Shown here one piece after another: positions 4,922 to 56,767 of a stretch of 64,000 nt of DNA. A program made the position numbers and the translations under genes. How positions within the stretch are numbered: the stretch's first letter is position 1; every line of letters begins with the position of its first letter. This stretch comes from an uncultured bacterium (GTDB taxonomy: Bacteria > Patescibacteriota > Minisyncoccia > Phycocordibacterales > PALSA-1337). Location: contig CAIMDG010000001.1 of NCBI GenBank assembly GCA_903839725.1, positions 235,315 to 299,314 on the forward strand, read 5' to 3'. Below the pieces are notes generated by a model. The model did not search any database and was not told the DNA's origin. It saw only the letters and a program-made list of their open reading frames with translations.

Positions 4922-5917
4922 TTATTTCCTCAGCATAACCTTACATGCAGCAGCATATATATCTTTTTCACCCATACCATAGTGTTCAATGAGTTCATCT
5001 GGTGTGCCTGACTGACCAAATTGGTCTATGACGCCAATGAATTCGATCGGTACTGGTTTGTGTGATGCGAGACATTCCGCAACAGCAGAACCCATACCTC
5101 CAGCGATCTGATGTTCTTCGACGGTAACAATTGCGCCGGTCTGATTTGCAAGCTGAACAATAGCATCAACATCAAGTGGTTTGATTGTTGCCAAATTTAA
5201 AACAATAACAGCCTTACCTTCTGCTTCCAATTTCTGCGCAACCTTAAGTGCTCGATGAAGTAATGCGCCCGTAGCAATAATCCCCACATTGAAACTTGAT
5301 CCTTGAGACTTGAACATTACTTCCGCTTTTCCTATCTCAAATGGTGTATCTTCAGTCGTGATGATCGGTGTCTTCTCGCGAGCAAGACGAATATACGTTG
5401 GCTCTTGTGTTTGTGCTGCAGCAATGGTTGCCTTACGTGCTTCGATAGCATCACAAGGTGAAATCACTACCATACGAGGAATAACACGCATGAGGGCAAT
5501 ATCTTCAATGGCTTGATGTGTTCCACCATCAGGACCAACAGAAACACCCGCATGTGAACCTGCAATTTTTACTGGTACATTATTGTAGGCAATCGTTGTA
5601 CGGATTTGTTCCCAATTCCTGCCCGGACTGAACATTGCATACGATGTCATGAATGGAATCTTGCCCATAGCAGCCATACCTGAAGCAACTCCTGCGAGAT
5701 TTTGTTCTGCAATACCCATCTCGATGAATCGATCTGAAAACTTCTGCTTGAATCCAGTCATCATCGTCGAATCAACAAGGTCCGCACATAATCCTACAAC
5801 ATTTCTATTCATCTCAGCAGCCTTCAATAACCCTTCACCAAAACCTTTGCGAATAGGAACTTGTTCGACATCTGTGTCGAAGATTTTTGAATTGAGTTGT
5901 TGAGATGGATTGATCAT
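4922..5917 (-). CDS. tkt: transketolase, C-terminal (pyrimidine-binding) subunit
   Basis: Transketolase Pyr and C-terminal domains (GSHAGVSVGPDGGTHQ...). Split-gene arrangement with the N-terminal subunit upstream. Confidence 0.9.
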   Translation of the reverse strand: MINPSQQLNSKIFDTDVEQVPIRKGFGEGLLKAAEMNRNVVGLCADLVDSTMMTGFKQKFSDRFIEMGIAEQNLAGVASGMAAMGKIPFMTSYAMFSPGRNWEQIRTTIAYNNVPVKIAGSHAGVSVGPDGGTHQAIEDIALMRVIPRMVVISPCDAIEARKATIAAAQTQEPTYIRLAREKTPIITTEDTPFEIGKAEVMFKSQGSSFNVGIIATGALLHRALKVAQKLEAEGKAVIVLNLATIKPLDVDAIVQLANQTGAIVTVEEHQIAGGMGSAVAECLASHKPVPIEFIGVIDQFGQSGTPDELIEHYGMGEKDIYAAACKVMLRK

Positions 5918-5923
5918 GTAAAA

Positions 5924-6184
5924 TTAGAGTGTATTCAAGAAACCGAGACTTATCAAAGAAAATATAACGAGAAGAGCACCTTCGATTTTTCGTATTCTAA
6001 AATCACTTTTTGCATTGGCACCTTTGTAACTTGGCTTTTTATTCAAGGTGAGAACGACTCCAAGGGCAAAACTTACGACCAAGAATGTCCACAAACCAAC
6101 ATTGATTACATTACTTGTAGAAATAAGAACGACTGCAAGAATAAGGAAACAAAACTTGAGAGTGATTTCAATTGGTCTCATCAT
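5924..6184 (-). CDS. small membrane protein (2-3 TM) between the two transketolase subunit genes
   Basis: Hydrophobic ORF of 86 aa, tightly packed between 4922..5917 and 6210..7082. Confidence 0.4.
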   Translation of the reverse strand: MMRPIEITLKFCFLILAVVLISTSNVINVGLWTFLVVSFALGVVLTLNKKPSYKGANAKSDFRIRKIEGALLVIFSLISLGFLNTL

Positions 6185-6209
6185 ATATGTAATAAATTTA
6201 TATTAATAA

Positions 6210-7082
6210 TTAACTATGGTCCGAATTACTAACTCTTCCACCAAGCGTCCTCACCGCATCCAATGCCGTCTTGATTTCTTCGGGCGTTGTCGGAGGCTTC
6301 CCGTGCCATTCAAACTTACGTTCAAATGCTGGAATACCCTTTGATGGAATAGTATAGGCAATGATCACTGAAGGCTTATCAAATACTGCTTGAGCCTCTC
6401 CAATTGCACGATCAATGTCGCGGAAATCATGACCATTAATCTCTTGTACATGCCAATTGAATGATCTCCACTTGTCAACGAGTGGATTGAGTGGCATCAC
6501 ATCTTCGGTAAAACCATCTATCTGAATATTGTTACGATCGACAATAACTGTAAGATTTTGTATCTTCTCTTTTCCTGCAAGCATGATAGCTTCCCAGTTA
6601 TTTCCTTCATCAAGTTCACCGTCCCCCACCAAACAATAGAATTGTTTTGTGGAAGAACGTCCATTGTCGAGACGGTCTGCGAGTGTCATGCCAACTGTCT
6701 GTGAAATGCCACAACCGAGAGGGCCTGAAGAAGTTTCGAGCATTGGTAACCATTCACGATGCGGATGACCCTGAAGACGTGAGCCGAACTTACGTAGGGT
6801 CATCAATTCTTCAACCGGAAAATATCCAGCATGTGCCATTGTTGCATATAGAACTGGACAAATATGTCCATTGGAAAGTATAAGACGATCACGATATTCC
6901 CATGAAGGATTCTTCGGGTCGTGTTTGAGTGCATGAAAATACAAATACGCAAAGATATCAGCCATATCGAGTGGACCAGCGGTGTGGCCGGACTTTGCTT
7001 CAATCAACATTTCAACAATAGAACGACGAATGTCGCGGGCTTTTGATTCAAGTTGCGTAACTTTTTCAGAGGTAAGTGCCAT
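6210..7082 (-). CDS. tkt: transketolase, N-terminal (TPP-binding) subunit
   Basis: GHTAGPLDMADIF and CLVGDGELDEG TPP-binding motifs. Start set at MALTSEK; the longer ORF-track extension covers a palindromic repeat. Confidence 0.9.
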   Translation of the reverse strand: MALTSEKVTQLESKARDIRRSIVEMLIEAKSGHTAGPLDMADIFAYLYFHALKHDPKNPSWEYRDRLILSNGHICPVLYATMAHAGYFPVEELMTLRKFGSRLQGHPHREWLPMLETSSGPLGCGISQTVGMTLADRLDNGRSSTKQFYCLVGDGELDEGNNWEAIMLAGKEKIQNLTVIVDRNNIQIDGFTEDVMPLNPLVDKWRSFNWHVQEINGHDFRDIDRAIGEAQAVFDKPSVIIAYTIPSKGIPAFERKFEWHGKPPTTPEEIKTALDAVRTLGGRVSNSDHS

Positions 7083-7111
7083 GTCGGGTATATTATACCA
7101 TGGAAGCGATA

Positions 7112-7209
7112 CAAATCCGCAAATGCATGCGAATGACGCAAATAAGCGCACCAAAATCTAAAATAGAGTGTGATTCATTCGCATTATTCGCATGCATTTG
7201 CGGATTTGC
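7112..7209. promoter_or_regulatory. long inverted repeat (caaatccgcaaatgcatgcgaat ... attcgcatgcatttgcggatttg) upstream of tkt; member of the AATGCGAAT palindrome family
   Basis: 23-bp perfect arms with a ~50-bp spacer, read from the sequence. Related sites at 7913..8001 and 41737..41797. Confidence 0.6.
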
Positions 7210-7216
7210 ATCGCAA

Positions 7217-7900
7217 TCATTCCTGTAAATATGGCAATTTCTTAAATTGATCGATAGCTTCAACAAAATTGTCACTATTGAATATAGCTGAACCGACAAT
7301 CAAACGATCAACACCTGCTTTGATCAGGAGTGGACCGGTTTCAAGAGAAACTCCCCCATCAACAGAAACAGTGAGAGATGGATACATAGCTTTTACCGCT
7401 TTAACTTTTTCTATAACACGCTCATCAAAATCCTGACCTTGAAAACCGACATGTGTAATTCCCATACATTGCACGAATTGAATCTTCTCTTTGTAGTGTT
7501 CAATAACATCTATTGGCGTATCGATATTCAAAGCCAAACCAACTTCAACACGTCCAGTGAGCATATCAACTGCTTCGGTGACACTACCTGTTGCCTCGAC
7601 GTGAATGATGATACGAGTTGCGCCAGCACGCACCCAGTCTTCAACAACTGTTTCTGGCTTATTTGCCATGAGATCAATTTCAAAATTTAATTTCTCCCAA
7701 CCAGGCAAACCTTCTTCTTCAGTCAGCATCTTTTCGAAGGTGTCATCACGCTTCTTATACGGCCATGATGGCGCAGGAGTAAATTGTCCGTCACATACAT
7801 CGATCTGAACAGTCTTCACAAAATCTCTAACCAAACCGATTTTTTCTTCGAGTTCAGCGAAGTCTTTAGGGAGTATTGCGGGGATGATTTCTACTTTCAT
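7217..7900 (-). CDS. rpe: ribulose-phosphate 3-epimerase
   Basis: Typical Rpe TIM-barrel sequence (VDGGV near the C-terminus), 227 aa. Confidence 0.9.
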   Translation of the reverse strand: MKVEIIPAILPKDFAELEEKIGLVRDFVKTVQIDVCDGQFTPAPSWPYKKRDDTFEKMLTEEEGLPGWEKLNFEIDLMANKPETVVEDWVRAGATRIIIHVEATGSVTEAVDMLTGRVEVGLALNIDTPIDVIEHYKEKIQFVQCMGITHVGFQGQDFDERVIEKVKAVKAMYPSLTVSVDGGVSLETGPLLIKAGVDRLIVGSAIFNSDNFVEAIDQFKKLPYLQE

Positions 7901-7912
7901 GTGTGTATTTAA

Positions 7913-8001
7913 TACGAATCTACGAATAATGCGAATCTACAAATTATTAATATGCGAATTGTTTGCGTTATTTGTGGCATTCGCATCATTTGTAGATTCG
8001 T
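7913..8001. promoter_or_regulatory. palindromic motif pair acgaatctacgaataatgcgaatctacaaat / atttgtggcattcgcatcatttgtagattcgt upstream of rpe
   Basis: Near-identical to the pair at 41737..41797 upstream of prfA. Confidence 0.6.
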
Positions 8002-8006
8002 TGAGA

Positions 8007-8495
8007 CTACTCAATATTATCTATCTGCTCAATTCTTCTCTGGTGTCTCTCATCTCCACTAAATGGAGTTTCTAGCCATGATTCAACTGCATCACATGCT
8101 GCATCTTGCTCAACATATAATGCTCCAATTGAAAGAATATTTGCATCATTGTCATTTCGAGTATGTCTCAAGACCTCTTGATTACCCCCGTACCATACTG
8201 CTGTGCGTACTCCAGGAAAACGATTTGCGACAATAGCTTCACCTTCTCCTGAAGCGCCAAAGATAATAGCCTTGGTCTCACCCTTCAAATCCTGTGCAAC
8301 CTTCATCGCGGCTGCTGACATAAAAATAGGATAATCATCACCAGGAACGAGTTCATGAGCACCTACATCAAGTACTGTATACTTTTTGCCTGCCTGCGCA
8401 GGCAGGGCTTGCAAGAATGATTTAACAGCTTCTTTGAGAGCAAAGCCAGCATGGTCAGAAGCGAGGATGATAGTTGGGGTTTTTGAAGAATTCAT
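8007..8495 (-). CDS. rpiB: ribose-5-phosphate isomerase B (RpiB/LacAB family)
   Basis: ILASDHAGF ... GALYVE ... RHQRRI motifs. Carries the in-frame 18-bp palindrome insertion LPAQAGKK. Confidence 0.9.
   Translation of the reverse strand: MNSSKTPTIILASDHAGFALKEAVKSFLQALPAQAGKKYTVLDVGAHELVPGDDYPIFMSAAAMKVAQDLKGETKAIIFGASGEGEAIVANRFPGVRTAVWYGGNQEVLRHTRNDNDANILSIGALYVEQDAACDAVESWLETPFSGDERHQRRIEQIDNIE
8389..8406. repeat. second copy of the 18-bp palindrome CCTGCCTGCGCAGGCAGG, in frame in rpiB
   Basis: Identical to 2446..2463. Confidence 0.9.
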
Positions 8496-20283: not shown

Positions 20284-20850
20284 CTAATATTTCCTCACGA
20301 CACCCTTCACCACCGCACCAATCTTGAGGTCATATTCTGGGTATATATTCTTGAAATTTTTGTTGGCAGGCTCCAACCACACCTTGTTTCCTGTTTTACG
20401 ATAATATTTCATCGTCCACCCACCATCCACCTCAGCAATGACGATGTCACCATCTTTTGCGACAGTAGAACGCATAGCAATAACCAAGTCACCTTCTTGG
20501 ATACCTGCATCTATCATAGATTCACCTTTGACTTCGAGCATATATGAAGTTGACTTATCACTGATCAAATAGTCATCGAGACTAATCATATCGAGATCTT
20601 GTTCTTCAGCAGTAGTCGGAATACCCGCTTCAACCAAACCAAGAAGAGGTAATTCACCGATCATGCGCAATGGAGAAAGTCGCCCACTAGAATCTTTGGT
20701 CACAATGCCCTGTTCAACCAATTTGTTGATGAGCTTGTAGACCGCATTCTTGGACTTGAAACCGAGAATCTTCATAATCTCTGAGTACGTCGGCATACGA
20801 CGATTGTCTCGGTAGAATGAAAGTATTTTGTTCTGGTGTGATGAAGGCAT
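20284..20850 (-). CDS. lexA: LexA repressor (S24 peptidase)
   Basis: N-terminal winged HTH and C-terminal S24 domain with GESM and the catalytic Ser/Lys region. Confidence 0.85.
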   Translation of the reverse strand: MPSSHQNKILSFYRDNRRMPTYSEIMKILGFKSKNAVYKLINKLVEQGIVTKDSSGRLSPLRMIGELPLLGLVEAGIPTTAEEQDLDMISLDDYLISDKSTSYMLEVKGESMIDAGIQEGDLVIAMRSTVAKDGDIVIAEVDGGWTMKYYRKTGNKVWLEPANKNFKNIYPEYDLKIGAVVKGVVRKY

Positions 20851-20858
20851 ATATACTA

Positions 20859-21058
20859 TTAAAACATGAATGTGTGCATGAAGCTAAATGATCCAAACAT
20901 AGTTCTTTGTGGTGAAAGACGCTTGAGCTGAGCAATGAGGAACTTGTGACGACGAGCTTCACGGGCATATGATATCCCACGAATGATGCGGAGGTCTATT
21001 TCTTGGTTCAACTTATCGAGTTCACGACGAATGGTTTTGATTGTTTGGTGTTTGCTCA
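20859..21058 (-). CDS. small basic protein upstream of and co-oriented with lexA
   Basis: 66-aa ORF starting MSKHQTIKTIRR. No recognised domain. Confidence 0.3.
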
Positions 21059-21094
21059 TATGTGTAGGCTTAATTACTATGTGTATAGTATAGG

Positions 21095-21110
21095 TGAACA
21101 ATCGTTCACC
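21095..21110. promoter_or_regulatory. Cheo-box type SOS operator GTGAAC-AATC-GTTCAC
   Basis: Perfect GAAC-N4-GTTC palindrome about 40 bp upstream of the small-ORF/lexA operon. It matches the Gram-positive LexA box consensus CGAACnnnnGTTCG. Confidence 0.55.
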
Positions 21111-22504: not shown

Positions 22505-22539
22505 ATAAATAAAATGTAGCATTAATTGAAAGAAGAACC

Positions 22540-22648
22540 AATAGGGGCACATGTACTTATTTTCTGCACAAGTTTAGAGACATGTACATTACATCGCGTA
22601 CCTCAATGTTTACAAACTTGTGCAGAAAATAAGTACATGTGCCCCTAT
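22540..22648. repeat. hairpin module E1: 36-bp perfect inverted arms around a 38-nt loop
   Basis: aataggggcacatgtacttattttctgcacaagttt - loop - aaacttgtgcagaaaataagtacatgtgcccctatt. Confidence 0.9.
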
Positions 22649-23046
22649 TGGTTTTTGATGTGGTATATGAAAACGCCACCACTTCTGGCAAGTGGCGGCG
22701 TGGTCCAAGGTTGATTCGTCCTCGCGGACGAATTATACATCAGATAGGTTGGGTTTGATTGCCAACCTCGTTTTTGATTGAAACTCAACGTATCAATGTG
22801 CGCCAGGGCACACGCCAGAATCATCCGGAAGTGCTCATGCATGGCCGCCGTGAATTCACGGGGTCTTGCAGAATTCCAACGGAAAGAGTGATACGTTGCA
22901 CCGATGCTCTGGGTAAACCAGAGTGTGCAAGCAGCTCCTACATACAGGAGCGGAAGAACATCAGTTGTGAAGATATTCATACCTAAAAAAAGTCTATAAC
23001 AAGGAGCATGTAATTGCAAGATGATGTAATACATAGCGACTAAGAA
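22649..23046. other. GC-rich (about 50 %) non-coding core with multiple stable hairpins between modules E1 and E2
   Basis: Contains a hairpin plus T-run at about 22746..22778, a ccgtgaattcacgg palindrome and a gctcctacatacaggagc hairpin. ORFs here have no protein-like features. Confidence 0.5.
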
Positions 23047-23156
23047 AACGGGGATGTATACACACTTTTTCTGTACAAGTTTGTAAACATTGAGGTACGC
23101 TGTGTAATGTAAGTGTCTCTAAACTTGTACAGAAAAAGTGTGTATGCACCCCCGTT
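23047..23156. repeat. hairpin module E2, an inverted copy of E1 with the loop conserved and arms diverged compensatorily
   Basis: The E2 loop is the reverse complement of the E1 loop (2-3 mismatches). The arms differ from E1 at many positions but remain self-complementary. Confidence 0.9.
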
Positions 23157-23202
23157 CTCTCCAACGATTCCTCAAAACAAAAATATATCGTATACTGGTG
23201 AT

Positions 23203-26115: not shown

Positions 26116-26199
26116 TATAATCGTAAATATTAAAAATTAAATCTCAAATCTAGCCTCTTATATTTGAGATTTAAGATTTGATATTTGAGATTGCTCTAG

Positions 26200-29055: not shown

Positions 29056-32000
29056 ATGTCCCGCTTCAGCCACCTCCACGTCCACTCCCACTATTCTTTG
29101 CTTGCGGCACTACCAAAAGTTGATGATTTGGTAGATGAAGCCAAGAAACTCGGCATGAAGGCATTAGCACTTACTGACAATGGTAACCTCTATGGTGCTA
29201 TTGAATTCTATAAAGCCTGCACGAAAAAAGAGATCAAACCTATCATTGGTGTCGACTTTTTTGTCGCCATCCGTTCACGCACAGATCAACAGGCAGGAAT
29301 AGACAACCGTCGCAGTCGTCTCGTCCTTCTTGCTATGAATGAAAAGGGGTATCAAAATCTCATCCAACTCGTTACACTCTCACACCTCGAAGGTTTCTAT
29401 TACAAGCCTCGTATCGACCGCGAACTTATCGAAAAATACAGTGAAGGTCTTATCTGTATTTCGCCTTCATTCGGAGGGGAAATATCACAATCCCTCAAAA
29501 GCAGAAATCAAGACAAGGCCATAGAAGTAGCCACGTTCTATAAAAAAGTATTTGGTGACAGGCTATATATCGAAATAAGTCGACATCCTGAAATCGATGA
29601 TCATGAAGGAAATATGAAAACCTTGGCCACCTTCGCAAAAAGCCAACAGATTCCAGTATGCGCCGCACATGATGTGTACTATCTCAAACCAGAAGATCGT
29701 TTTGCTCGTGAGACACTTGTACGCGTGAATTCTCACAGTGATTCATCTGATCGTATTTCTGACAGTGATGAAGATGATTTTTCCTTTATTTCACCTGAGC
29801 GAGCTGAAGAACTATTCAGGGACATGCCTGAAGCTCTCGACAATACCCAGAAAATAGTTGATTTATGTAATCTCACCATGGAACTGGGTAAATGGGTCTT
29901 CCCTGCATTCACCGTAGAAAGTGGACGAACACCAGATGATGAATTGCGTCATGTGGTATTCGAAGGATTTGCTCGACGTGGTATCGAAAAAACAGATGAA
30001 CTCGTGAAGCGTGCGGAGTATGAACTCAAAGTCATCAAAGACAAAGGGTATTCTCCATACTTCCTTGTGGTGGCGGACATGCTTCGGTTTGCCAGAGAAA
30101 ATGGCATATTGAGTAATATCCGCGGATCAGTTTCTGGATCGATGGTCACGTATCTCGCAGGTATCACCAACATAAACCCGATTGAATATGAAATTCCCTT
30201 TGAACGCTTCCTGAATCCTGAACGTCCATCTGCTCCTGATATCGACATGGACTATGCTGACGATCGTCGCGATGACATGATTACCTATGTCCGTGGAAAA
30301 TACGGCAAGGATCACGTCGCTCAAATCGGAACATTCGGTACCATGGCTGCTCGTGGTTCAGTTCGTGACGTCGCTCGTGCTATGGGATTCCCCTACGATG
30401 TTGCTGATCGTATTTCAAAGATGATTCCTATGGGTGCACAAGGATTTCCCATGACTATTGATCGTGCCTTGAATGAAGTACCTGAGCTCAAAGAAATCTA
30501 CAATTCTGAACAGGATACTCGACGTATTATTGATATGGCAAGAAAGATCGAAGGTTGTGCGCGTCACATCGGTGTGCACGCTGCTGGTGTGGTTATTTCT
30601 CCGACTGCACTTACCGATTACACCGCACTTCAGTTTGATCCAAAAGGTGAAGGCAAAATCATCACCCAATACGATATGTACTCGATCGAAGAAGCTGGTC
30701 TTCTCAAGTTCGACTTCCTTGGGCTCAAAAACTTAACTATTATTGCCGACAGTATTGATCGCATCGAAAAGCTCACCGGTATCAAAGTTGATTACGATAC
30801 TATTCCCGTCGATGATACAAAAACATTCGAAATGCTTGCTCGCGGAGAAACTGCCGATCTCTTCCAGTTGAACGGTGACGGTATGACTAGATTCCTGAAA
30901 GACTTGAAACCAACAACCATTCACGACATCAACGCTATGGTGGCACTGTATCGTCCAGGTCCTATTCAGTTCATCCCGGAATATATTGCCCGCAAACACG
31001 ATCGATCACTCATCAAATATCTTGACCCTGCACTCGAGACAATTCTCGACAAAACATATGGCATTCTCGTGTATCAAGACGACCTCTTGATGATGGCTCA
31101 CAAGCTCGCTGGATATAGTTGGGGTGAAGTGGACAAGTTCCGTAAAGCCGTTGGTAAAAAAATTCCTGAAGAAATGGCGAAGCAAAAAGAGAAATTCATC
31201 GAAGGTTGTGTGAAGCACAGCAAATGGTCAGAGAAAAAAGCTAAAGAAGTCTGGAAATGGATTGAGCCATTTGCAGCGTACGGTTTCAACAAAGCTCACT
31301 CAGTATCATATGGTCGCGTCGCATATATTACTGCATACCTCAAAGCGCATTTTCCTGAAATATATTTGTCGGCTGTCCTTACATCTGAACAAGGTGAAAC
31401 TGAAAAAGTTGCTGAAACTATCGCTGAATGTAAGCGCATGAATATTCCTGTTCTTCCTCCTGACGTGAATGAAAGTTTCAGTCAATTCACTGTGGTCAAG
31501 ACTCTTGCAGAGGTCTCTCCAGAGCGGGCGCCAACTCCAAACCAACCGGCACAACATGTGCATGTGGGACGACCTTCGGAAGGAGCGAAGGCGAATCAGC
31601 AGATTCGTGCTTGGCCGACTGAGAATGAGGTGCTGGCCGAGCACGGCCAGACACCGTTCGTCCCACATGCACATGTTGTGCCGGTTGGTTCTTATCGCAT
31701 TCGTTTCGGTTTGGTAACGATCAAAAACTTCGGCCAAGGAATATCAACCGGCATCACCGATGAACGCAAGCGAGCTGGAAAATTCAAGTCATTGAATGAC
31801 TTCCTCGATCGCGTCAAAGACAAAAACCTCAATAAAAAATCTCTCGAAGCCCTCATCAAATCTGGAGCCATGGATTGCTTCGGTATTGATCGCGGTGTCA
31901 TGATGGCGAACCTCGATCTCATTCTTGATTACAACAAAGAAAATGCAAATCAGCACAGTGATCAAACATCCCTCTTCGGCATGTTCACCAATGCCTCTGA

Positions 32001-32418
32001 TGTACCAACTCTTCGTCTCATCGATGCGCCTCATGCCACAATGCGCGCCAAACTCGCATGGGAAAAGGAATTGCTTGGCTTGTATGTTTCAGGACATCCC
32101 CTTGAAGAATACCGCGAAATAATCACCAAAAGAGATATCGACATCAAACGAGCTCTTGAAACCGGCAAAGAAGGTGGCACTGTGGTATTGGCAGCCATGA
32201 TCAATGATGTGCGCCTCATTCAAACAAAAAAGAATGAAACTATGGCATTCATTACTATTGCTGATTTTTCCGGAGAATCAGAGGCCGTTGTATTCCCTCG
32301 CGTCTACAATGAATTCAAAGCACTTATTGCTCCTGATATTTGTCTCGCAATCAAAGCAACAATTAATTCAAGAAATGGAGAAAAAGGATTTATTCTGGAA
32401 CGATTAAAAAAACTATAA
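29056..32418 (+). CDS. dnaE: DNA polymerase III alpha subunit
   Basis: PHP domain (HLHVHSHYS), palm, fingers and OB domains. It contains an about 55-aa in-frame insertion encoded by a GC-rich palindromic element at 31540..31690. Confidence 0.95.
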   Translation: MSRFSHLHVHSHYSLLAALPKVDDLVDEAKKLGMKALALTDNGNLYGAIEFYKACTKKEIKPIIGVDFFVAIRSRTDQQAGIDNRRSRLVLLAMNEKGYQNLIQLVTLSHLEGFYYKPRIDRELIEKYSEGLICISPSFGGEISQSLKSRNQDKAIEVATFYKKVFGDRLYIEISRHPEIDDHEGNMKTLATFAKSQQIPVCAAHDVYYLKPEDRFARETLVRVNSHSDSSDRISDSDEDDFSFISPERAEELFRDMPEALDNTQKIVDLCNLTMELGKWVFPAFTVESGRTPDDELRHVVFEGFARRGIEKTDELVKRAEYELKVIKDKGYSPYFLVVADMLRFARENGILSNIRGSVSGSMVTYLAGITNINPIEYEIPFERFLNPERPSAPDIDMDYADDRRDDMITYVRGKYGKDHVAQIGTFGTMAARGSVRDVARAMGFPYDVADRISKMIPMGAQGFPMTIDRALNEVPELKEIYNSEQDTRRIIDMARKIEGCARHIGVHAAGVVISPTALTDYTALQFDPKGEGKIITQYDMYSIEEAGLLKFDFLGLKNLTIIADSIDRIEKLTGIKVDYDTIPVDDTKTFEMLARGETADLFQLNGDGMTRFLKDLKPTTIHDINAMVALYRPGPIQFIPEYIARKHDRSLIKYLDPALETILDKTYGILVYQDDLLMMAHKLAGYSWGEVDKFRKAVGKKIPEEMAKQKEKFIEGCVKHSKWSEKKAKEVWKWIEPFAAYGFNKAHSVSYGRVAYITAYLKAHFPEIYLSAVLTSEQGETEKVAETIAECKRMNIPVLPPDVNESFSQFTVVKTLAEVSPERAPTPNQPAQHVHVGRPSEGAKANQQIRAWPTENEVLAEHGQTPFVPHAHVVPVGSYRIRFGLVTIKNFGQGISTGITDERKRAGKFKSLNDFLDRVKDKNLNKKSLEALIKSGAMDCFGIDRGVMMANLDLILDYNKENANQHSDQTSLFGMFTNASDVPTLRLIDAPHATMRAKLAWEKELLGLYVSGHPLEEYREIITKRDIDIKRALETGKEGGTVVLAAMINDVRLIQTKKNETMAFITIADFSGESEAVVFPRVYNEFKALIAPDICLAIKATINSRNGEKGFILERLKKL
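31540..31690. repeat. ~150-bp GC-rich nested palindrome inserted in frame in dnaE
   Basis: 33-bp perfect inverted arms aaccaaccggcacaacatgtgcatgtgggacga / tcgtcccacatgcacatgttgtgccggttggtt with inner palindromes. About 58 % GC against about 38 % for the gene. Confidence 0.85.
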
Positions 32419-40726: not shown

Positions 40727-41719
40727 TTATTCCTCGTCATCAACATCCTCACCACCAGTTGTCTCTCCCCCGTTTTTCTCAAATTCCATCAATGCTTCAG
40801 TAATAGGATCAAATTTACCTAACAAAATTGCAGGAAGGTTGTGCCATGATTGCTTGATACGGTGATCTGTTACGCGATCTTGTGGGAAGTTATACGTACG
40901 AATCTTTTCTGAACGTGAACCGGTACCAATCTGACCCTTGCGGTTAGCTGCGAACTTCTGTGATTCTTGCTCTTCTTGCAAAGCCTCGAGCTTGGCAGTC
41001 AAAATAGAAAGTGCCAATTCACGGTTTGCACCCTGACTACGTTCTGCAGTCGAACGAACATCGATACCTGTTGGCTTGTGGATCAAACGCACAGCTGATT
41101 CCACCTTGTTCACGTTTTGACCGCCCTTGCCTCCAGCACGTGAGAATTCCATTTCAAGGTCAGCTGGATTGATGACAAACTTTGATTTCTTGCGAATCGG
41201 CATAATAGCAATCGTCACGGTCGAAGTATGTGTACGTCCCATCTTCTCTGTTTCTGGCACACGTTGCACACGATGCACACCTGTTTCCCAGCGAAGATTT
41301 TCAAATACATCCTTACCCTTTATTTCGAGTGAGGCTTCTTTGTATCCACCAAGATCATTTTTTGATTCATCGATAACTTTTGTTTTCCATCCTTTACTTT
41401 CAGAATATCTCTTGTACATGTCAAAAAGCTCTGCAGCAAAGAGTGCTGCCTCATCTCCTCCAGCACCAGCACGAACTTCGAGAATAATCTCTTTTGGTTT
41501 TTCATCTTCAACTTGATCAGATGCGATAATAGCCATCATCTCAGTTTCGAGAGACTTTTTTTGTTCGAGTATTGATGCAAGTTCATGTTCAGCCATTTCC
41601 TTGAATGAAGGGTCAGCTTCCAACATCGTACGTACTTCAGACTCATCTTTACTGAGCTTCTCGTACATTCCGGCCATGAATGCGGTCTTTGGGTTATTTT
41701 TGCAGATTTCTAAGTCCAT
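40727..41719 (-). CDS. prfA: peptide chain release factor 1
   Basis: GGQ motif and a PET tripeptide at the RF1 PxT position. Confidence 0.85.
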
Positions 41720-41736
41720 AGTGGTTTAAATATAAT

Positions 41737-41797
41737 ACGAATCAACGAATAATGCGAATGCAACAAATTTGTAGCATTCGCATTATTTGTAGATTCG
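41737..41797. promoter_or_regulatory. palindromic motif pair acgaatcaacgaataatgcgaatgcaacaaat / atttgtagcattcgcattatttgtagattcg upstream of prfA
   Basis: Nearly identical to 7913..8001. Confidence 0.6.
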
Positions 41798-41804
41798 AAT
41801 CTCC

Positions 41805-42059
41805 CTACTTCTTTGACTTTGCGAGACGATTCTTGAACTTTTCAACACGACCAGCAGTATCGATAGTCTTTTCCTGATTTGTGTAGAATGGGTGAGATGC
41901 ACTTGAGATTTCGAGATTGTAGACAGGATATTCTTTTCCATCAGTCCACTTTGCAGTTTCCTTGGTGTGAGCTGTTGAAGAAATCAAAAACTTAGCGCCG
42001 CTAGAATTGTCGGCGAAGATGACTGGGCGATAATTTTCTGGGTGTATATCCTTTTTCAT
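41805..42059 (-). CDS. rpmE: 50S ribosomal protein L31
   Basis: [10 protein letters not shown] start and typical L31 length. Confidence 0.85.
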
Positions 42060-42187
42060 AGTCATCATAAATTATCACAACTTGAGGTAAAGTGCAACTT
42101 TTCTTGTCCAAGGCCTGACTTCGGGCAGATTACTATAGGTATTATGGTCATTGTATGGTACTTTTAAGACACATATATCCTTCTCCT

Positions 42188-42758: not shown

Positions 42759-42829
42759 TGCGGGATCGTCTAATGGTAGGACACGAGCCTTTGAAGCTTG
42801 TTATCTTGGTTCGAATCCAAGTCCCGCAG
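42759..42829 (+). tRNA. tRNA-Gln (TTG) with U1:A72 and G73
   Basis: Acceptor tgcggga/tcccgca, anticodon loop ctTTGaa, T-arm cttgg-ttcgaat-ccaag. Confidence 0.8.
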
Positions 42830-42934
42830 CAGTCATGTGGTAGGTTCGGGAGACCGAGACCTGTCAGTTAATTATGTTTTTGACAAAGCGTTAATTCGTG
42901 GCGTTTTTCGGCTTTTTGTGAGAAGATAGGCTTT

Positions 42935-43936
42935 ATGAAACCTGAGGAAAAATTTATCAATATCACTGATAATAAGACAAAGATCAAACAGCTAATCGAA
43001 GAATTAGTTTTGGCCCCTCGACTGAATGCCATTAAATGGTCTCAAATTACGAAGCAAACTCCAAATATCAAGATTGGATATCCTGGACAGCATTTAGCCT
43101 CATTGATTACTGGAATGCCAGGCGAAAGAACTGGTGCGCGTGGCAATGATCTAATTGACGGTTCAGAAGTTAAATCGTGTTCTCGTGTTGATCAACTTGA
43201 TGTCTGTAAGGCATGTAAGTCACCTGTATCAAGATCCGAGGAAATATGTCCTGCCTGTAACTCAAAGGATGTATCTAGAAAAGAAGATTCAAAGTGGTTA
43301 TTTACGATTAGAAACGAGAACGATCTTAAGGTTCTTATAAATGATGTTAAAAGAGTTGTTCTCCTGATCGCTGATTATCCAAATTTTGAATCAAATGATT
43401 TCAATACTCTTCGTTTTCAGGCCTACGAAATTTGGACTCAAAGTCCAAGAAATAAAAGATTTAGTGAGTTGATGGATAACTACTATCATAAGATATACCT
43501 AGGACATAAGACAAAAGATGCCTCAAAGAACCCTGCACCAAAGAATTTTTGGCCATACTCATATCAATTTTTCCTCTGTAACCCAATCCTAACTTTCTCT
43601 TGTATAGTTAAAGACGCTAATACTAAACCAAAAATTGATATTCAGCATTATATAGAACCGAACCAAGATCGATCAAAATTGGAGTCTGTACTTATGCCAC
43701 CGAATCTTCTTGGTGATCTTGAATTTGATATTCTCTTAAATAATGCAAAAAAGTCAGAGATAATTGATATGCTTAATATCGATAAAATACCAGATTTTAA
43801 ATCTATGAAGTTACCAGAGAAGAGAAAGGTCTTTAAGGGTATTGATGAGAAGCTAAGATTCTATCTCCCATTAAGAGATACTGATAAGATTTCTGAATCT
43901 AAATCTGCTTACGCTCGTAGAAAATTAGTCGAATAG
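42935..43936 (+). CDS. putative type II restriction endonuclease
   Basis: Convergent with, and overlapping by 12 bp, a DPPY DNA methyltransferase. Has a Cys4 cluster (CKACK ... CPACN) and acidic/Lys residues (GNDLIDGSEVK) that could form a PD-(D/E)xK site. Called mainly from context. Confidence 0.35.
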   Translation: MKPEEKFINITDNKTKIKQLIEELVLAPRLNAIKWSQITKQTPNIKIGYPGQHLASLITGMPGERTGARGNDLIDGSEVKSCSRVDQLDVCKACKSPVSRSEEICPACNSKDVSRKEDSKWLFTIRNENDLKVLINDVKRVVLLIADYPNFESNDFNTLRFQAYEIWTQSPRNKRFSELMDNYYHKIYLGHKTKDASKNPAPKNFWPYSYQFFLCNPILTFSCIVKDANTKPKIDIQHYIEPNQDRSKLESVLMPPNLLGDLEFDILLNNAKKSEIIDMLNIDKIPDFKSMKLPEKRKVFKGIDEKLRFYLPLRDTDKISESKSAYARRKLVE

Positions 43937-44884
43937 TTTTTTCTGACTCTGTAAAAATTTAATTCTTTCTTTTGCTTTTTTGACGTAATCTGGATCAATT
44001 TCTATACCTATAAATTTTCTATTTAATTCTATTGCAGCCAAGGCGGTTGAACCTGCACCTAAAAACGGGTCAAGGACTATCATGCCCTCATTTGTACTAG
44101 CTTTGATGATTCGCTTGATTAAATCAACTGGTTTTTGAGTCGGATGATATCTTTCTTCTTTGTAAAATTTGATATCTGTCCAAACATCGGTGACTCCCAT
44201 CTCTATATTAAAGGTCTGCCCAATTTCCTCGTAAGGCAACTTAAATTCAAGGGCTTTCTCAAGTTTTTCCCACATCTCCCTTGTAGGGACTTGTGCAAGT
44301 ATATTTTCTCCTGTGTATAGCGACCAGACACCGCCACCATTGATCTTAACCCCAAGTCGTTTGTTTATATCTAAAGCAGTAAGCCCAAGTTCCTTCTGTC
44401 TCTTTTTTAGGAAGTCTTTAATAAACGGCTTACTATCGTAGATAAAAAATAGAAGGCTCTCGGTTACATTTGGAAACATTTTATATCCTTTCGTTGCTCT
44501 TCCCCCAAGAGCCTGCATACCTTTATCAATTACAAGTTGTTGTCTAAAAGTAAATCCTAAGTCTAGTATGTCTTTGTATAAATATACTAGGTTTCTCATA
44601 TATCCAAATAGGTAAAGACTACCAGAAATTTTAATTATTCTTGATAGTTCAGTGAACCATTCGAAGCACCACTTAGCGTAGTCACTTTCAGTTCTCCATT
44701 GATAATCCCAATGCTCGTTTATGACTTTCCAGTAAGGAGGATCGAGAACTATTAAATCAACACTTCTACTCGGCATTTTTTTTAGTTCTTCAATACAGTC
44801 GCCACAAATAATAGAATTAACCTCTAATTGGTTAACTAATTTACTTTTTTCTTTCTTTATCTTCTTATTCGTTTTTGTTGGCAT
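43925..44884 (-). CDS. DNA methyltransferase, beta-class (N6-adenine or N4-cytosine)
   Basis: DPPY motif IV near the N-terminus and FLGAGST motif I near the C-terminus. Confidence 0.8.
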   Translation of the reverse strand: MPTKTNKKIKKEKSKLVNQLEVNSIICGDCIEELKKMPSRSVDLIVLDPPYWKVINEHWDYQWRTESDYAKWCFEWFTELSRIIKISGSLYLFGYMRNLVYLYKDILDLGFTFRQQLVIDKGMQALGGRATKGYKMFPNVTESLLFFIYDSKPFIKDFLKKRQKELGLTALDINKRLGVKINGGGVWSLYTGENILAQVPTREMWEKLEKALEFKLPYEEIGQTFNIEMGVTDVWTDIKFYKEERYHPTQKPVDLIKRIIKASTNEGMIVLDPFLGAGSTALAAIELNRKFIGIEIDPDYVKKAKERIKFLQSQKKLFD

Positions 44885-44924
44885 TGTTGTTGATATTATG
44901 GCTTATTTCTAAGGTTTATACAAT

Positions 44925-46250
44925 TTAGACTTCATTCAAATATAATGTTTTATTATTAAGTTTAATTTTACTTTTTAAACAACTGAGCAACTCGCGTTTT
45001 TCAAAACTTGTACCTTCTCTTAGGATATATTTTGCATAGTTTCTGATTTCTATGTCCGCAACCTTTATCTTCTCGGTTTTACCAAGAACACCCGACTGAA
45101 ACTTCTTGTATCTCTCAACCTCAGCTTTTATATGCTCCTTCATACCGATCTCATCTAGATTAAGGGTGTCAATCATTTCCTCAAATTGTTTGATAAGATC
45201 TTCTTCTCGGATATACCCACACTTACAATCTTTATCTGCAAACCTGCTACATCCGTAGTACACATATCGATGCACATTTCCGTTAGCTTGTTTCTTGAAT
45301 TTCTCATCAGCAGTTATACCTGATCCACATAATCCACACTTGATGAGTTTCGTGAAGGCAAATTCCTTATTTTCAACTCGTATAATCGACCGTTGCATTT
45401 TCTCTTGCACGATATCAAATAGTTCCTTGGTGATGATCGGTTCATGTTTTCCCGTATACCATCGACCACTATTCTTTGGGTACTCGAAGCTACCGTAGTA
45501 GAAGTGATTTTTGAGGAGAATGTACACGTTGCTTAGGGTAAGTGGTTTACCTGACTTCGCTTTGAATTTGATTTCGTCCCGAAGCCAATAAAATATCTTT
45601 TTCCCACTCACGCCCTCATATGCCACTCGTTCGAACATCTTCTTCATGATCGGTGCTCGTTGATGATCTATATAGACGACCCCTTTCTCATTCACGTTGG
45701 TGCTATTAATGTAGCCTGTAGTTGCTACAGAAGGCCATAGACCCATCTCACACTTCGTTTTCAATCCTCGCTTCACATTGATGCTCTTGTTGTCGTTCTC
45801 GAGCTTAGCTTGGGATCCAAGGATCATGAGTAGGAACTTCTCATTTGGATTGTTCGTAAATTTCTGACTGTGCGTTCGTATCTCTATGAGGAGCTTCTGG
45901 TCAAGCAGATCGACAAGCGCTCCAAGATCTCCGGCATTTCTGCTCAGGCGATCAGGGTGCCATGTAATAATGCCGTTGAACTTTCCGCTCCGTATGTCTT
46001 GAAGAAGTTGATTGTACACAGGCCGTTGCCCGCAATCCTTTGCTGAATGGGACTCGCGATATACTTCAACAATATCGAGTTCGTCCCTTTGGGCAGTAGT
46101 GATCATTTCTTTGATCTGCGAGTCGATTGAAAGCGCTTGCCTTTCCTCCGCCTCACTCGATTTTCGAGCATAGAGGCAGTAACGTATTGGTAACGGCTTT
46201 ACCTCAAGATTGCCCATATTACTCCTCAGACCTATTGTTTTTGTTTCCAT
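44925..46250 (-). CDS. large serine recombinase (resolvase catalytic domain plus recombinase domain plus zinc ribbon)
   Basis: YARKSS catalytic Ser region, recombinase domain and C-terminal CxxC ... CxC cluster. Confidence 0.8.
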   Translation of the reverse strand: METKTIGLRSNMGNLEVKPLPIRYCLYARKSSEAEERQALSIDSQIKEMITTAQRDELDIVEVYRESHSAKDCGQRPVYNQLLQDIRSGKFNGIITWHPDRLSRNAGDLGALVDLLDQKLLIEIRTHSQKFTNNPNEKFLLMILGSQAKLENDNKSINVKRGLKTKCEMGLWPSVATTGYINSTNVNEKGVVYIDHQRAPIMKKMFERVAYEGVSGKKIFYWLRDEIKFKAKSGKPLTLSNVYILLKNHFYYGSFEYPKNSGRWYTGKHEPIITKELFDIVQEKMQRSIIRVENKEFAFTKLIKCGLCGSGITADEKFKKQANGNVHRYVYYGCSRFADKDCKCGYIREEDLIKQFEEMIDTLNLDEIGMKEHIKAEVERYKKFQSGVLGKTEKIKVADIEIRNYAKYILREGTSFEKRELLSCLKSKIKLNNKTLYLNEV

Positions 46251-46364
46251 ACTTACATTGATGACGCAGCCCCTCTTGAGAGTCTAGGACGCATCTGTTG
46301 GTAACTTATTCAGGCTATAATAATTAGCTTTTAAAATTAGTATTTTTGTGCTATAACTGGCCTA

Positions 46365-48125
46365 ATGAAACTTAAGAAAGTCAACATATCGGGTTTCCGA
46401 TCAATAAAGAAAACTGAGATACTTCTTGTTGAAGAGAAGATGACTATTCTAATCGGTGCAAACGATCACGGAAAGACTAATATTTTGAGTGCAATTGAAT
46501 TTTTGAATGAGGAAAAAACTTTTGTTCCAGATGATATTAACTGGGATCTTGAGACTGATCCAGATATAACAATAGAATGGCATTTTACACCATCGAGCGC
46601 TGCACTTGAGAAACTTGCATCACTTGAACATCAAACTGTTGAAGGTGAAGAGAGGCCGCCAATGATTGAAACCAATAAAGAGAATGAAATAGTTTATTAC
46701 CGAAAACATAGCGATAATAAAATAAAGGTTAAAAGTGTTCCTGGTATAATCCCTGTAGCAAAAGAGGTAGATGTTTTACAGTTGAGACCACGTATTGAAT
46801 TATTTGCGCCTCCAACTGCGAACTTGAGAGATCAAGTAAACCTAGGTCAACTTGAAACTTTGGAATTTGAATTTATGCAAGGAATATTTAGACTTGCTGG
46901 TATTTGGGATGTAAGGAAGGATATTTTTGTACAAAATGATAAGACTTCAAAATTGCTTGATGAGGCGTCATTGAAACTTACTGAAGTCCTAAATACTAAA
47001 TGGAATCAAGGCAGAGATCTAAAATGGAAAATAGAGCACACAGGAACAAACGGTGATCATATAGCCATAAAGATTCAAGATCCCGCTATTGGGACAAGGT
47101 ATACACGACCCTCTCTTAGGTCGTCTGGTTTTCGTACCTATTTCTTGCTTTCAATGATTACTTATGCTCGAACTGAAAATAAGGTTGCAGATTCGTATGT
47201 GTATCTCTTTGATGAACCAGGCACATATTTGCATCCTCATGCTCAATTGGATCTACAACGTAGCTTTGAATCAATATCTGGAAAGACGCAGATTATATAT
47301 ACAACACATTCACTTTTTCTTATCAATAAAAACTATCCTGGTAGAAATCGTGTAATAAGCAAAGCGAAAGACGGCACTAAAATTGACCAAAAGCCTTTTG
47401 TAAAAAATTGGAAATCTGTCCGAGAGTCACTTGGTATACTACTTAGTAATAATTTTCTTATTGCTGAAAAAACTCTTCTTGTTGAAGGCCCTTCTGATGT
47501 GATTTATATTCTTCATGCAATTAAGAAACTTAAAGCGGCGGATGAAATAGACATCGATCTCAATGATCTAAGCGTTGTTGATGCTGGGACATCTGAAAAC
47601 TATCTTGCTATGGCAAAGTTGATGGTTGCTGAAGGTCGTGAGGTTGTCGCGCTTTTGGATGGTGATAAGAAAGGTGAAGAAATAGAGAAACAATTGAAAA
47701 AAGTTTGCGAAAAAGAAATTAAGGATGGGAAACTCCAGATTCTCAAACTCCCTAAGGATAAATCAATAGAAGATATATTCACTGATGTGTCTGTTACCAA
47801 AAAAGCAATTGAGGCACTTGCTACTGATCTTATTGGAATGGGTATTCGTAAGTTGAAAAACGGAATTAACCTTGCTGGCGAAGTTGCCAAAATCGCGCCA
47901 ACTACTACTTTAACACTCGGAAGAATCATAGATGAAAAAACAACTTCAATGTTTGATCCAGAAGAGAAGCTTTCAAAACTTTCTATCGCACTAAAATATG
48001 AGGATATTATGTCGGACTCGGTTGCACTACCAGATAATGCTAAAGAGCAGATAGAAAAAATTAAAGACAAACTTTCTCTTAAAAATGAGAGAAATGATGA
48101 AAAATCTATTTTTGAAGAGGTCTAA
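46365..48125 (+). CDS. OLD-family nuclease: ABC-type ATPase plus C-terminal TOPRIM (class 1 OLD / GajA / fused PARIS-like architecture)
   Basis: Walker A GANDHGKTN, Walker B YLFDEPGTYLHP. TOPRIM region with LLVEGPSDVIYI and LLDGDKKGEE. 586 aa. Confidence 0.75.
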   Translation: MKLKKVNISGFRSIKKTEILLVEEKMTILIGANDHGKTNILSAIEFLNEEKTFVPDDINWDLETDPDITIEWHFTPSSAALEKLASLEHQTVEGEERPPMIETNKENEIVYYRKHSDNKIKVKSVPGIIPVAKEVDVLQLRPRIELFAPPTANLRDQVNLGQLETLEFEFMQGIFRLAGIWDVRKDIFVQNDKTSKLLDEASLKLTEVLNTKWNQGRDLKWKIEHTGTNGDHIAIKIQDPAIGTRYTRPSLRSSGFRTYFLLSMITYARTENKVADSYVYLFDEPGTYLHPHAQLDLQRSFESISGKTQIIYTTHSLFLINKNYPGRNRVISKAKDGTKIDQKPFVKNWKSVRESLGILLSNNFLIAEKTLLVEGPSDVIYILHAIKKLKAADEIDIDLNDLSVVDAGTSENYLAMAKLMVAEGREVVALLDGDKKGEEIEKQLKKVCEKEIKDGKLQILKLPKDKSIEDIFTDVSVTKKAIEALATDLIGMGIRKLKNGINLAGEVAKIAPTTTLTLGRIIDEKTTSMFDPEEKLSKLSIALKYEDIMSDSVALPDNAKEQIEKIKDKLSLKNERNDEKSIFEEV

Positions 48126-48425
48126 ACATGACTGTTGGTAACTCGACTTCGCAACCCCTCTAATCTAAGCTAAGGTACAGGACAGATTTTGATATTTCTG
48201 GTATTATTATTTTACAACTGAATAAGTGACCTAACCCCTAAATAACCCTTTGTTTTCTAGGATATGGTCGAAAAGCCGTCCAAAGTAAAGAACTCCTAAT
48301 CAGAGCTACTTTGGACGGTCACATCTCGAAAGAGGTGTGGGCACTCCCTGCGGGGTTTGTCGGCCTGGTTAGGAGCTTTTTGCTATCTAGTTCTCGGTCA
48401 TTATTAGTAAAACCGTCCAAATTTT

Positions 48426-48884
48426 ATGAGTATATTTGAATTTGTCATACCTGTAGTTACTCTAGTTGTACTGACTGCCATCGTCGTATTAGCTGTTAAA
48501 GAAATTAGAATAAATAAGAAAGTTAAAATTCTTCTTAAAAGTTTGACTGTTAAGTATCAAGAAAGTCCTGCTTTGTACATTCAGGATCTAATTTCTTTAG
48601 AGACATACAAAAATAAACAGAAAGATATTGTTCTGATAAAAGCATTGGATATGCTAAAAAAGCAGAAAGAGTTTGCTGAACTAGCGCAGAAGAAGCAAAA
48701 TTATAAATCAGATTACACCTCTTTGATTTTAATATCAGTGTTGGTACTTATTTCTGCAATAGTTGCTGTTCTTTTATATATGCTTACATTGATTATCCCA
48801 GGATTGGTATTTAGTTGGATCTTCGTTGCTCTTGTTGTGTTAGTGATTGCGGTGGTATTTATTATTACGGCTTTCGTTTCTTAA
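48426..48884 (+). CDS. small membrane protein (N-terminal TM plus C-terminal double TM) downstream of the OLD nuclease
   Basis: Hydrophobic N- and C-termini with a charged middle. 152 aa. Confidence 0.45.
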   Translation: MSIFEFVIPVVTLVVLTAIVVLAVKEIRINKKVKILLKSLTVKYQESPALYIQDLISLETYKNKQKDIVLIKALDMLKKQKEFAELAQKKQNYKSDYTSLILISVLVLISAIVAVLLYMLTLIIPGLVFSWIFVALVVLVIAVVFIITAFVS

Positions 48885-50743: not shown

Positions 50744-51151
50744 ACTAAAAGATGAAATTATTTAATAATTTCTCTGTAGTGGAATAAAAATATAGGGTGT
50801 ACCTTCCAGAGGGAGGAGATACGTATCGTGAAGTCTGTAAAGATGTTGCGGCTTTTGTTCCCGTACAACACTTTAGACTGATAAAACCTTATAACCCCTA
50901 AGGTACAGAACGTAGACGGAGACCGATACCACTATGGTCAGGAGCACACGTTACTGTTTGCTAGAATTATTCGAGATATTGTTCCTCGAGGTGTTACTAC
51001 GAATTCTTTGCTTAGAGTAAGTATATCAAGTAGATAATTTTGTAAAATAGGTACCTGTGGACAACTTTTCGCATGTGTGTTGTCGTATACACAGTGTATA
51101 AGGAGATGTTTTTATGCTCGCTTATAGCACCAAAAGGAATATAATTACCAT

Positions 51152-56573: not shown

Positions 56574-56767
56574 CAATCTTGAGAGAAAAATCTAAGGGAC
56601 ATATTACGCAATGTCATATAGACACTTCATCATTGCTGTGGTAATTTCGATATAGAAAGCTTTTTACATATCGAGCATCACTGTTCGTGGCTTTCTACGC
56701 GGAAAAATACACAACGCATATGAAAACACCAAACCAACGTAAAAAACGGGTCTACTCGGAGGCGGAT

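Follow-up and report, generated by a model that had tools for sequence, protein, structure and literature searches.

ATTCG-unit palindromes in the spacers of co-directional genes: a dispersed intergenic repeat family of Patescibacteria

Why should three spacers in one genome be filled, almost from the stop codon of one gene to the start codon of the next, by long palindromes built of the same short units? The spacers lie in a stretch of 64,000 nucleotides (nt), hereafter the window, from an uncultured member of the Patescibacteriota (GenBank assembly GCA_903839725.1, contig CAIMDG010000001.1, forward-strand positions 235,315 to 299,314). A preliminary description had proposed that the palindromes were either a shared operator or a dispersed repeat with a preference for promoter regions. 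We find that they belong to a family of intergenic repeats, newly noted in the candidate phyla radiation (CPR), whose arms are arrays of ATTCG units, and that the family is widespread yet patchy in Patescibacteria and not species-specific. Neither Rfam nor the literature searched, with 13-mers as text included, yielded a prior description of such a motif; against Rfam 15 the three palindromes gave no match at the gathering score, and at E<=10 just sub-threshold matches to miRNA-precursor hairpins. The reading that we favor, at a probability of roughly 0.55, is that the palindromes are dispersed repeats akin to miniature transposable elements with inverted repeats (MITEs) or repetitive extragenic palindromic (REP) sequences, with arms that are putative arrays of protein-binding units, and that they punctuate transcription units in a genome without Shine-Dalgarno (SD) sites. 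The family could be called the 'ATTCG-octad element'.

The window holds three copies:

7106..7214, no strand: element A, a full palindrome in the rpe/tktN spacer, with arms at 7106-7143 and 7177-7214 and a 33-nt center.
7912..8001, no strand: element B, a palindrome in the rpiB/rpe spacer, with its left arm at ~7912-7944 and its right arm at 7970-8001.
41735..41800, no strand: element C, a loop-less palindrome in the rpmE/prfA spacer, with arms at 41735-41767 and 41768-41800.

A repeat search of the window and a pattern match to all six arms confirmed the three intergenic inverted-repeat sites and their common motif. The arms of A are 38 nt long and 89% complementary; those of C are 33 nt long and 88% complementary, with zero loop. 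Four RCRAAT/ATTYG units of 8-9 bp (ATTCGCAT / ATTCGTAG), spaced 8-10 nt, make up each arm. Elements B and C had been thought nearly identical over ~60 bp. Their left arms are indeed 93% identical over 30 nt and their right arms 94% over 31 nt, but the two elements are not collinear over that length because B carries an extra center of ~33 nt, which holds one additional unit (7951-7959, TATGCGAAT). Element A, whose units are for the most part CAAAT/ATTTG variants, fits the degenerate family pattern with both arms and is a more diverged member.

Chance does not produce such arms. The 23-mer ACGAATMWACGAATAATGCGAAT, with up to three mismatches, occurs four times in the window and not once in 100 shuffles. 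A degenerate arm pattern written to cover all six window arms, ATTCGCATN{1,2}ATTYGYNGATTYG, matches exactly those six and nothing else, with 0 expected, and arrays of at least three ATTYG units at 7-11 nt spacing number six arms in the window versus 0.04 in shuffles. These counts rule out a chance origin. The bare 9-mer AATGCGAAT quoted in the preliminary description is not enriched when one mismatch is allowed (20 observed, 28.8 expected); since the unit arrays are enriched, the signal is the array and not the word. Neither the remainder of the window nor ~13 kb of adjoining sequence from this organism contained another copy. A DNA-uptake sequence was considered and rejected: CGAAT is not over-represented (91 and 70 copies in the window, against a composition estimate of ~69 per strand), and three elements per ~77 kb would be too few.

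The family extends far beyond this genome. The 23-nt arm pattern was scanned against one genome per species (GTDB representatives, 596 Gb) and matched at least 119 stretches, where a uniform-composition estimate predicts ~17 by chance. Among the matches listed, ~90 assemblies are represented, nearly all labelled Patescibacteria and belonging to more than 20 named lineages. These include Saccharibacteria; the Parcubacteria/Paceibacteria groups Zambryski-, Yanofsky-, Nomura-, Taylor-, Kaiser-, Wolfe-, Lipton-, Sung-, Harrison- and Jorgensenbacteria; Falkow-, Moran-, Kerfeld-, Magasanik-, Buchanan-, Roizman- and Doudnabacteria; and Microgenomates and Gracilibacteria. Matches labelled Zixibacteria, Bacteroidales, Anaerolineales, Saprospiraceae and Methanoregula are single and mostly within open reading frames (ORFs), as chance predicts. 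About ten metagenome-assembled genomes (MAGs) labelled 'Gammaproteobacteria' have several arrays each; we suspect mislabelling. Carriage by phages was rejected, as a viral collection gave one match, in coding-like sequence and consistent with chance.

Aligned on the pattern, the copies have a regular build. Arms usually contain four units (range 3-9) of 8-9 bp, in the conserved order, from inside to outside, ATTCGYRG-c-ATTCGCAT-N1-2-ATTCGTAG-ATTCGCAT-YRY, with unit starts spaced 9, 9-10 and 8 nt. Conservation continues past the pattern for one unit upstream (ATTCGYRG c) and for 3-6 nt downstream (YAT YRY), and then ends. In a two-armed element a variable center separates opposed arms whose conserved outer ends point outward, an order found in 45 of the 51 arm pairs no more than 60 nt apart (p=3e-21).

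The gene context of the copies was taken from the loci hit by the arm-pattern scan, with crude ORF calls. The preliminary description had held that a similar frequency inside coding regions would speak against its proposal; within the hit loci, ~110 of the 126 arms that fit the strict pattern lie between genes. From the outer end of an arm to the flanking coding region the median distance is 10 nt, and from the inner side to the other gene it is 72-76 nt. In 38 cases the outer end faces the start of a downstream gene in the same direction, in 42 it faces, in the opposite orientation, the stop of the upstream gene, and the outer hexamer is identical in the two situations. Full palindromes, the window's three included, adjoin both a stop and a start, and there was no significant association of two-armed elements with gene ends and of single arms with promoters. 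Co-directional spacers are favored (93/384, versus 14/132 for divergent and convergent spacers together, p=7e-4), a figure that is ascertainment-biased, being drawn from within the hit loci. In start-proximal arms the outer end lies a median of 10 nt before the ATG, which is also the commonest spacing, and spacings of 10, 4 and 7 nt are preferred among the start-proximal arms of loci L005-L123 (mod-3 classes 19:8:6, p=0.012, post hoc). The idea of a relay mini-ORF or an in-frame stop was dropped, the preference being the same with or without a TAG stop in unit 2.

The genes that follow start-proximal arms are unrelated housekeeping genes (40 genes in 66 Pfam families, with only UvrD found twice), so that no regulon is apparent. 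They include lepA, uvrD, secY, pgk, pheT, smc, smpB, tig, pth, dnaJ, dnaX and ftsE, a release factor and many ribosomal-protein genes, and one arm precedes a tRNA.

In the window, the genes that flank the elements and the -10-like hexamers at their start-side ends are:

8007-8495, minus strand: rpiB (Pfam).
7217-7900, minus strand: rpe (Pfam), with its ATG at 7898-7900.
6210-7082, minus strand: tktN, the N-terminal half of a split transketolase (Pfam), with its ATG at 7080-7082.
41805-42068, minus strand: rpmE, for L31 (Pfam).
40727-41719, minus strand: prfA, for release factor RF1 (Pfam), with its ATG at 41717-41719.
7909..7914, minus strand: TATTAA, -10-like, continuous with the outer end of the start-proximal arm of B, 8 nt before the rpe ATG; a putative promoter element.
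41729..41737, minus strand: TATTATATT (TATTAT and TATATT overlapping), -10-like, continuous with the outer end of C, 12 nt (TATTAT) and 9 nt (TATATT) ahead of the prfA ATG.
7092..7100, minus strand: TGgTATAAT, extended -10-like (score 8/8), 8 nt beyond the outer end of A and 9 nt before the tktN ATG.

Each element thus occupies a spacer between co-directional minus-strand genes: rpe/tktN for A, rpiB/rpe for B and rpmE/prfA for C. The proximity to minus-strand starts reported earlier holds, the next ATG being separated from the edges of A, B and C by 24, 12 and 16 nt; what had gone unremarked is that the elements also begin just 2 nt (A), 5 nt (B) and 4 nt (C) from the upstream stop codon. Their start-side ends lie at, or 8 nt short of, a TATAAT-like hexamer, itself 8-12 nt before the ATG. 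Such hexamers are the rule in this genome: most window ORFs have one 2-13 nt (typically 6-9) before the ATG, SD sites are nearly absent from the window, and no -35 signal is detectable at window promoters. Because of these three features, the genome appears to use -10-only promoters and mostly leaderless or near-leaderless mRNAs. The array itself was rejected as a -35 element of the housekeeping sigma factor, as window promoters have no -35 signal and the array stands in three spacers only. The transketolase is split into N- and C-terminal genes (4922-7082) with an 86-aa ORF of unknown function (5924-6184) in between, an arrangement found identically in several metagenome contigs.

How stable is an element at a given locus? 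The prfA spacer was compared in 80 prfA loci from metagenomes (357 kb), the relatives having 57-86% amino acid (aa) identity. The element upstream of prfA is lacking in 79 relatives' loci, and only the contig of the same species (L129, 94.5% nt identity) has it, retaining element C with three substitutions. Essentially no ATTCG arrays are present in the 357 kb. In the relatives the rpmE-prfA spacer is absent, or it holds a terminator-like hairpin followed by TATAAT-N5-9-ATG, or it holds palindromes of other ~8-bp units. Because these orthologous spacers contain other elements or none, the family, though widespread, is patchy and not tied to a given spacer. The palindromes of other units have the same long build, with GAATT, GGAGTAAG, AAAGTC or GTAAGA in place of ATTCG, and they occur in the rpmE-prfA spacers of nine loci (L125-L127, L131, L132, L134, L141, L143 and L190), two copies 1.9 kb apart being present in L131. 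In a Falkowbacteria locus (L091, 469-7000) six spacers of the S10 ribosomal-protein operon carry ATTCG palindromes or palindromes of other units. Unit-array palindromes may therefore be a general feature of these genomes. The L129 comparison had at first sight pointed to purifying selection on the spacer (3/85 nt mismatches versus 16% of third codon positions, p=3e-4); the test was set aside as confounded because the third positions of the neighboring rpmE are equally invariant (2/88).

These observations bear on what the element is and does. Under the favored reading, an ATTCG element would multiply within genomes through mobilization in trans by a unit-binding protein, or through recombination copying. 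Once it filled a co-directional spacer it would most likely act as punctuation: a hairpin or a bound array would separate the upstream transcript from the next gene, and the outer end would supply or adjoin the -10 hexamer from which transcripts of rpe, tktN or prfA would start with little or no leader. Like a MITE, the element has inverted repeats around a short non-coding core in dispersed copies, as seen in the three window copies, in the polarity of the arms and in centers common to copies within one genome (L028 and L052 in one Paceibacterota MAG; L017, L036 and L098 in another MAG). Of the earlier proposal of a dispersed palindromic repeat that favors promoters, the dispersed repeat stands; the targeting of promoters does not, as the elements prefer whole co-directional spacers between a stop and a -10 hexamer or ATG.

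Several observations weigh against this reading. No transposase gene, nor any gene for a REP-associated tyrosine transposase (RAYT), was found near any copy. The window ORFs include no Y1 or DDE transposase, and the only recombinase of the window, a large serine recombinase (44925-46250), lies in a separate island. The window holds no autonomous relative with matching ends that encodes a transposase. In 850 kb of hit loci, few arm pairs face outward at a distance of 0.3-3 kb (4, versus 13 in the opposite order). The one inspected, which is the sole tight outward-facing pair round a gene (L034, 2550/3065), encloses a 130-aa ORF, which we take, by eye and without a Pfam scan, to encode a GxxExxY-type nuclease-family protein and not a transposase, and the idea of a RAYT or transposase flanked by arms was dropped on that by-eye call. 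No target-site duplication is visible, the outermost triplets being inverted (ATA...TAT, GCG...CGC) and not direct; a palindromic 2-bp target duplication (TA or CG) may be compatible with such triplets. A precise empty site was not found, as the same-species contigs all carry copies and the relatives (no more than 86% aa identity) have wholly different spacers. Single arms make up more than half of loosely detected arms and still fit the strict pattern, which is unusual for decaying transposon ends. The 23-nt consensus is common to deeply diverged lineages, which suggests functional constraint on the sequence and not only selfish spread. In some elements (L032, L038, L100 and others) ATTAGCAT stands in every unit of one arm opposite CGAAT units in the partner. 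As to the proposed effect on transcription, a consensus scan made no terminator-like call at A, B or C, and its sole promoter call, at C (TTCGCA-18-TATATT, minus strand, 9/12 matches), is no commoner than chance predicts for the region.

Some of these points favor a different explanation, in which each arm is an array of operator or architectural type, to whose ATTCG units a small sequence-specific DNA-binding protein would bind cooperatively. Once occupied, the arrays would turn adjacent -10-only promoters on or off or insulate them, and would keep transcription of the upstream gene from reading through. Such a protein would be common across CPR, with paralogues of different specificity in the relatives that have other units. 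The conserved period and order of the units are what such arrays would have, the 8-9-bp period in direct and inverted order being reminiscent of MetJ met-boxes or omega-repressor heptads, and single arms look functional in many cases. Own arms were clearly more complementary than foreign arms in only ~35% of 55 two-armed elements, the window's three among them, and the sense strand shows no G-U bias. A variant such as ATTAGCAT that runs through one arm and not the complementary one looks, to judge by its sequence, more like protein recognition than like a hairpin. Because of the weak own-arm pairing, the absence of a sense bias, the one-arm variants and the single arms, we consider the units, and not their pairing, to be the conserved feature, and this suggests multi-site protein recognition of double-stranded DNA along each arm. 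It also fits that arms adjoin the -10 hexamer here, the genome having no -35 signal, and that palindromes of the same build and other units occupy the same spacer in relatives. On the other side, the downstream genes have no functional theme; stops are faced as often as starts, with the same outer hexamer; the polarity of the arms and the centers common within genomes fit copied elements better than independent sites; and the family is missing from close relatives. No candidate partner protein was found, and in the window no DNA-binding or transcription-factor gene adjoins the elements, so that the check for an adjacent factor gene suggested in the preliminary description came out negative; a LexA gene lies at 20284-20850. 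We regard operator arrays as a possible but less likely explanation.

A broader proposal, which we put forward tentatively and as somewhat speculative, is that the ATTCG arrays and the other-unit arrays of relatives are sites for a Patescibacteria family of DNA-binding proteins that delimits transcription units in genomes with -10-only, leaderless promoters and no SD sites. A single bound array might then both stop upstream read-through and position RNA polymerase for the next gene, as an undescribed, protein-based 'punctuation'.

Alternatively, the RNA hairpin might be the selected function, as an intrinsic or bidirectional terminator, a 3'-end stabilizer or an RNase III site, with the similarity of copies secondary. 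The folds are very strong: whichever strand is taken, A, B and C form long hairpins, and z ranges from -5.9 to -10.2 (A sense RNA, -68 kcal/mol and z -10.1; the two strands of B, z -5.9 and -6.4; the two strands of C, z -7.1 and -7.9). The strongest-folding spacers of the window are those of A, B and C, two more co-directional spacers and convergent gene ends, with no divergent spacer among them; the elements begin 2-5 nt past stop codons, and relatives have terminator-like hairpins at the rpmE-prfA position. Yet the single arms, more than half of the total, cannot form a hairpin, and the own arm pairs better than a foreign one in just the third or so of pairs given above. Sense RNA folds better than antisense in 9 cases and not in 19 (n=28, p=0.11), and elements are not enriched in convergent spacers (6/66, versus 93/384 co-directional). 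A, B and C have neither the G+C-rich stem nor the canonical U-tract of an intrinsic terminator, in keeping with the lack of a call in the scan, and a hairpin has no need of a 23-nt consensus across a phylum. We therefore think this explanation improbable.

Least credible is a transcription factor that co-regulates the pentose-phosphate genes rpe and tkt together with prfA, the shared operator of the preliminary description: three sites just upstream of minus-strand starts, two of them in one pentose-phosphate cluster, had made it attractive, and it founders on the lack of conservation at the 79 prfA loci, the 66 Pfam families of unrelated genes downstream in other genomes, the half of arms that lie at stops and the absence of an adjacent factor gene.

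Other palindromes were seen in the window, the first of which might be related to the family:

26119..26192, no strand: a possible degenerate relative, an AAATCTC/GAGATTT palindrome of ~7-8-bp units between the rbfA stop (26115) and tRNA-Cys (26200), with z -7.4.

Its build is like that of the ATTCG elements, yet it does not match the family pattern, and its membership is uncertain. Two palindromes of ~120 nt (22533-22656 and 23043-23160), with arms of 47-51 nt, are 85% alike and mutually inverted. They flank a G+C-richer segment with a 129-aa ORF that has no Pfam match, and may represent a second repeat family or else mark where a structured RNA or an insert begins and ends. The dnaE ORF (29056-32418) contains a perfect inverted repeat of 33 nt with 85 nt between its arms (31540-31690), at a place where the HHH_6 match is ~60 aa longer than the profile; a palindrome may have been inserted there, in frame, into a core gene. 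A perfect 50-bp palindrome (905-954) lies across the start of ORF 94-951. The DnaA-box-like 9-mer TTATCCACA occurs just upstream of that ORF and of ORF 20859-21101, the latter beside the LexA gene.

The island with the serine recombinase is a probable integrated mobile element beside tRNA-Gln (42759-51460). Along with the recombinase it encodes a MamI-type restriction enzyme and N6/N4 methylase, an OLD-family ATPase/TOPRIM nuclease, a LOOT RNA (RF03000, 68.8 bits, 48228-48357), an HTH_Tnp_1_2/terminase-small-like protein, a ParB-N methylase fusion and an FtsK-gamma protein. Further along, the segment 56000-60000 has a G+C content of 0.50, versus ~0.40 elsewhere, and may be foreign DNA; it spans ilvC (56687-57763), an ORF without a Pfam match (57876-58772) and part of a glycosyltransferase gene.

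Almost nothing is known of how transcription starts, stops and is regulated in Patescibacteria, and the words promoter, sigma, terminator and intergenic are absent from the text of a 2024 perspective on their unexplored biology. The ATTCG family is a conserved and easily recognized non-coding feature of ~90 species-representative genomes among the matches listed, and it sits at the boundaries of core genes for ribosomal proteins, a release factor and pentose-phosphate enzymes. It offers a handle for the discovery of a DNA-binding or mobilizing protein, for the mapping of transcript boundaries in cultured Saccharibacteria and for expression cassettes in hard-to-engineer CPR. Should it be merely a selfish repeat, it would still serve to trace horizontal exchange between CPR lineages. 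It is also a likely cause of assembly breaks.

How does the element compare with known systems? It fully shares the defining features of none of the Correia, REP, enterobacterial repetitive intergenic consensus (ERIC) and ribbon-helix-helix (RHH) tandem operator classes. It resembles a Rho-independent terminator in placing a hairpin directly after a stop, in a spacer where relatives have ordinary terminator-like hairpins; it differs in having no G+C-rich stem with a U-tract, in keeping its sequence across unrelated loci and lineages, and in occurring as single arms. TIGR-Tas guide arrays, described in a preprint as having variable spacers, box C/D motifs and a Tas protein, were rejected, as the elements are not built in that way and have no Tas-like gene in their vicinity.

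Correia elements of Neisseria (also known as CREE or NEMIS) are non-coding sequences of ~100-150 bp, with terminal inverted repeats around a variable core, that are intergenic and co-transcribed with genes. They have promoter-like hexamers at their ends and are linked to termination and to RNase III processing. Their insertion duplicates a TA target, and they are restricted to a single genus. The ATTCG element is like them in its inverted-repeat ends, variable core, intergenic placement near genes and promoter-like hexamers at the ends. Correia arms, however, lack arrays of 8-9-bp units, and unlike in Correia elements no target duplication is visible here, single arms occur often and the family spans more than 20 CPR lineages. 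ERIC sequences, or intergenic repeat units (IRU), are imperfect palindromes of ~127 bp in transcribed intergenic regions of enterobacteria. Their sequence is conserved from genus to genus, and they are not known to have a transposase or a function. The imperfect intergenic palindrome and the conservation of sequence across genera are shared; ERIC has no internal unit periodicity and a much narrower taxonomic span.

REPs and bacterial interspersed mosaic elements (BIMEs), which are associated with RAYT transposases, are palindromes tagged with GTAG/CGTC (PMC3733652). As in REPs, the ATTCG palindromes are short and extragenic, lie in co-directional spacers and have a proposed role in termination or mRNA stability; REPs too form families, though species-specific ones, and the tetranucleotide GTAG is present in the ATTCG arm (ATTCGTAGATTCG). 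REPs are 20-40 bp, G+C-rich and tagged at an unpaired end, whereas the ATTCG arms are 33-38 bp, A+T-rich and made of repeated units, with GTAG inside the arm, and among the window ORFs there is no RAYT (Y1 transposase) gene.

A final comparison is with operators of RHH repressors, in which 2-10 contiguous units of 7-8 bp, the 8-bp met-boxes of MetJ or the 7-bp heptads of the omega repressor, stand in direct and inverted order next to promoters, a 7-8-bp period that implies a spiral of protein round the DNA. RHH arrays belong to defined regulons or plasmid operons, and their protein is known, whereas for the ATTCG arrays neither a regulon nor a candidate protein was found, and they lie at stops as well. 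What the ATTCG element has in common with RHH operators is its contiguous short units, three to nine per arm, in direct and inverted order.

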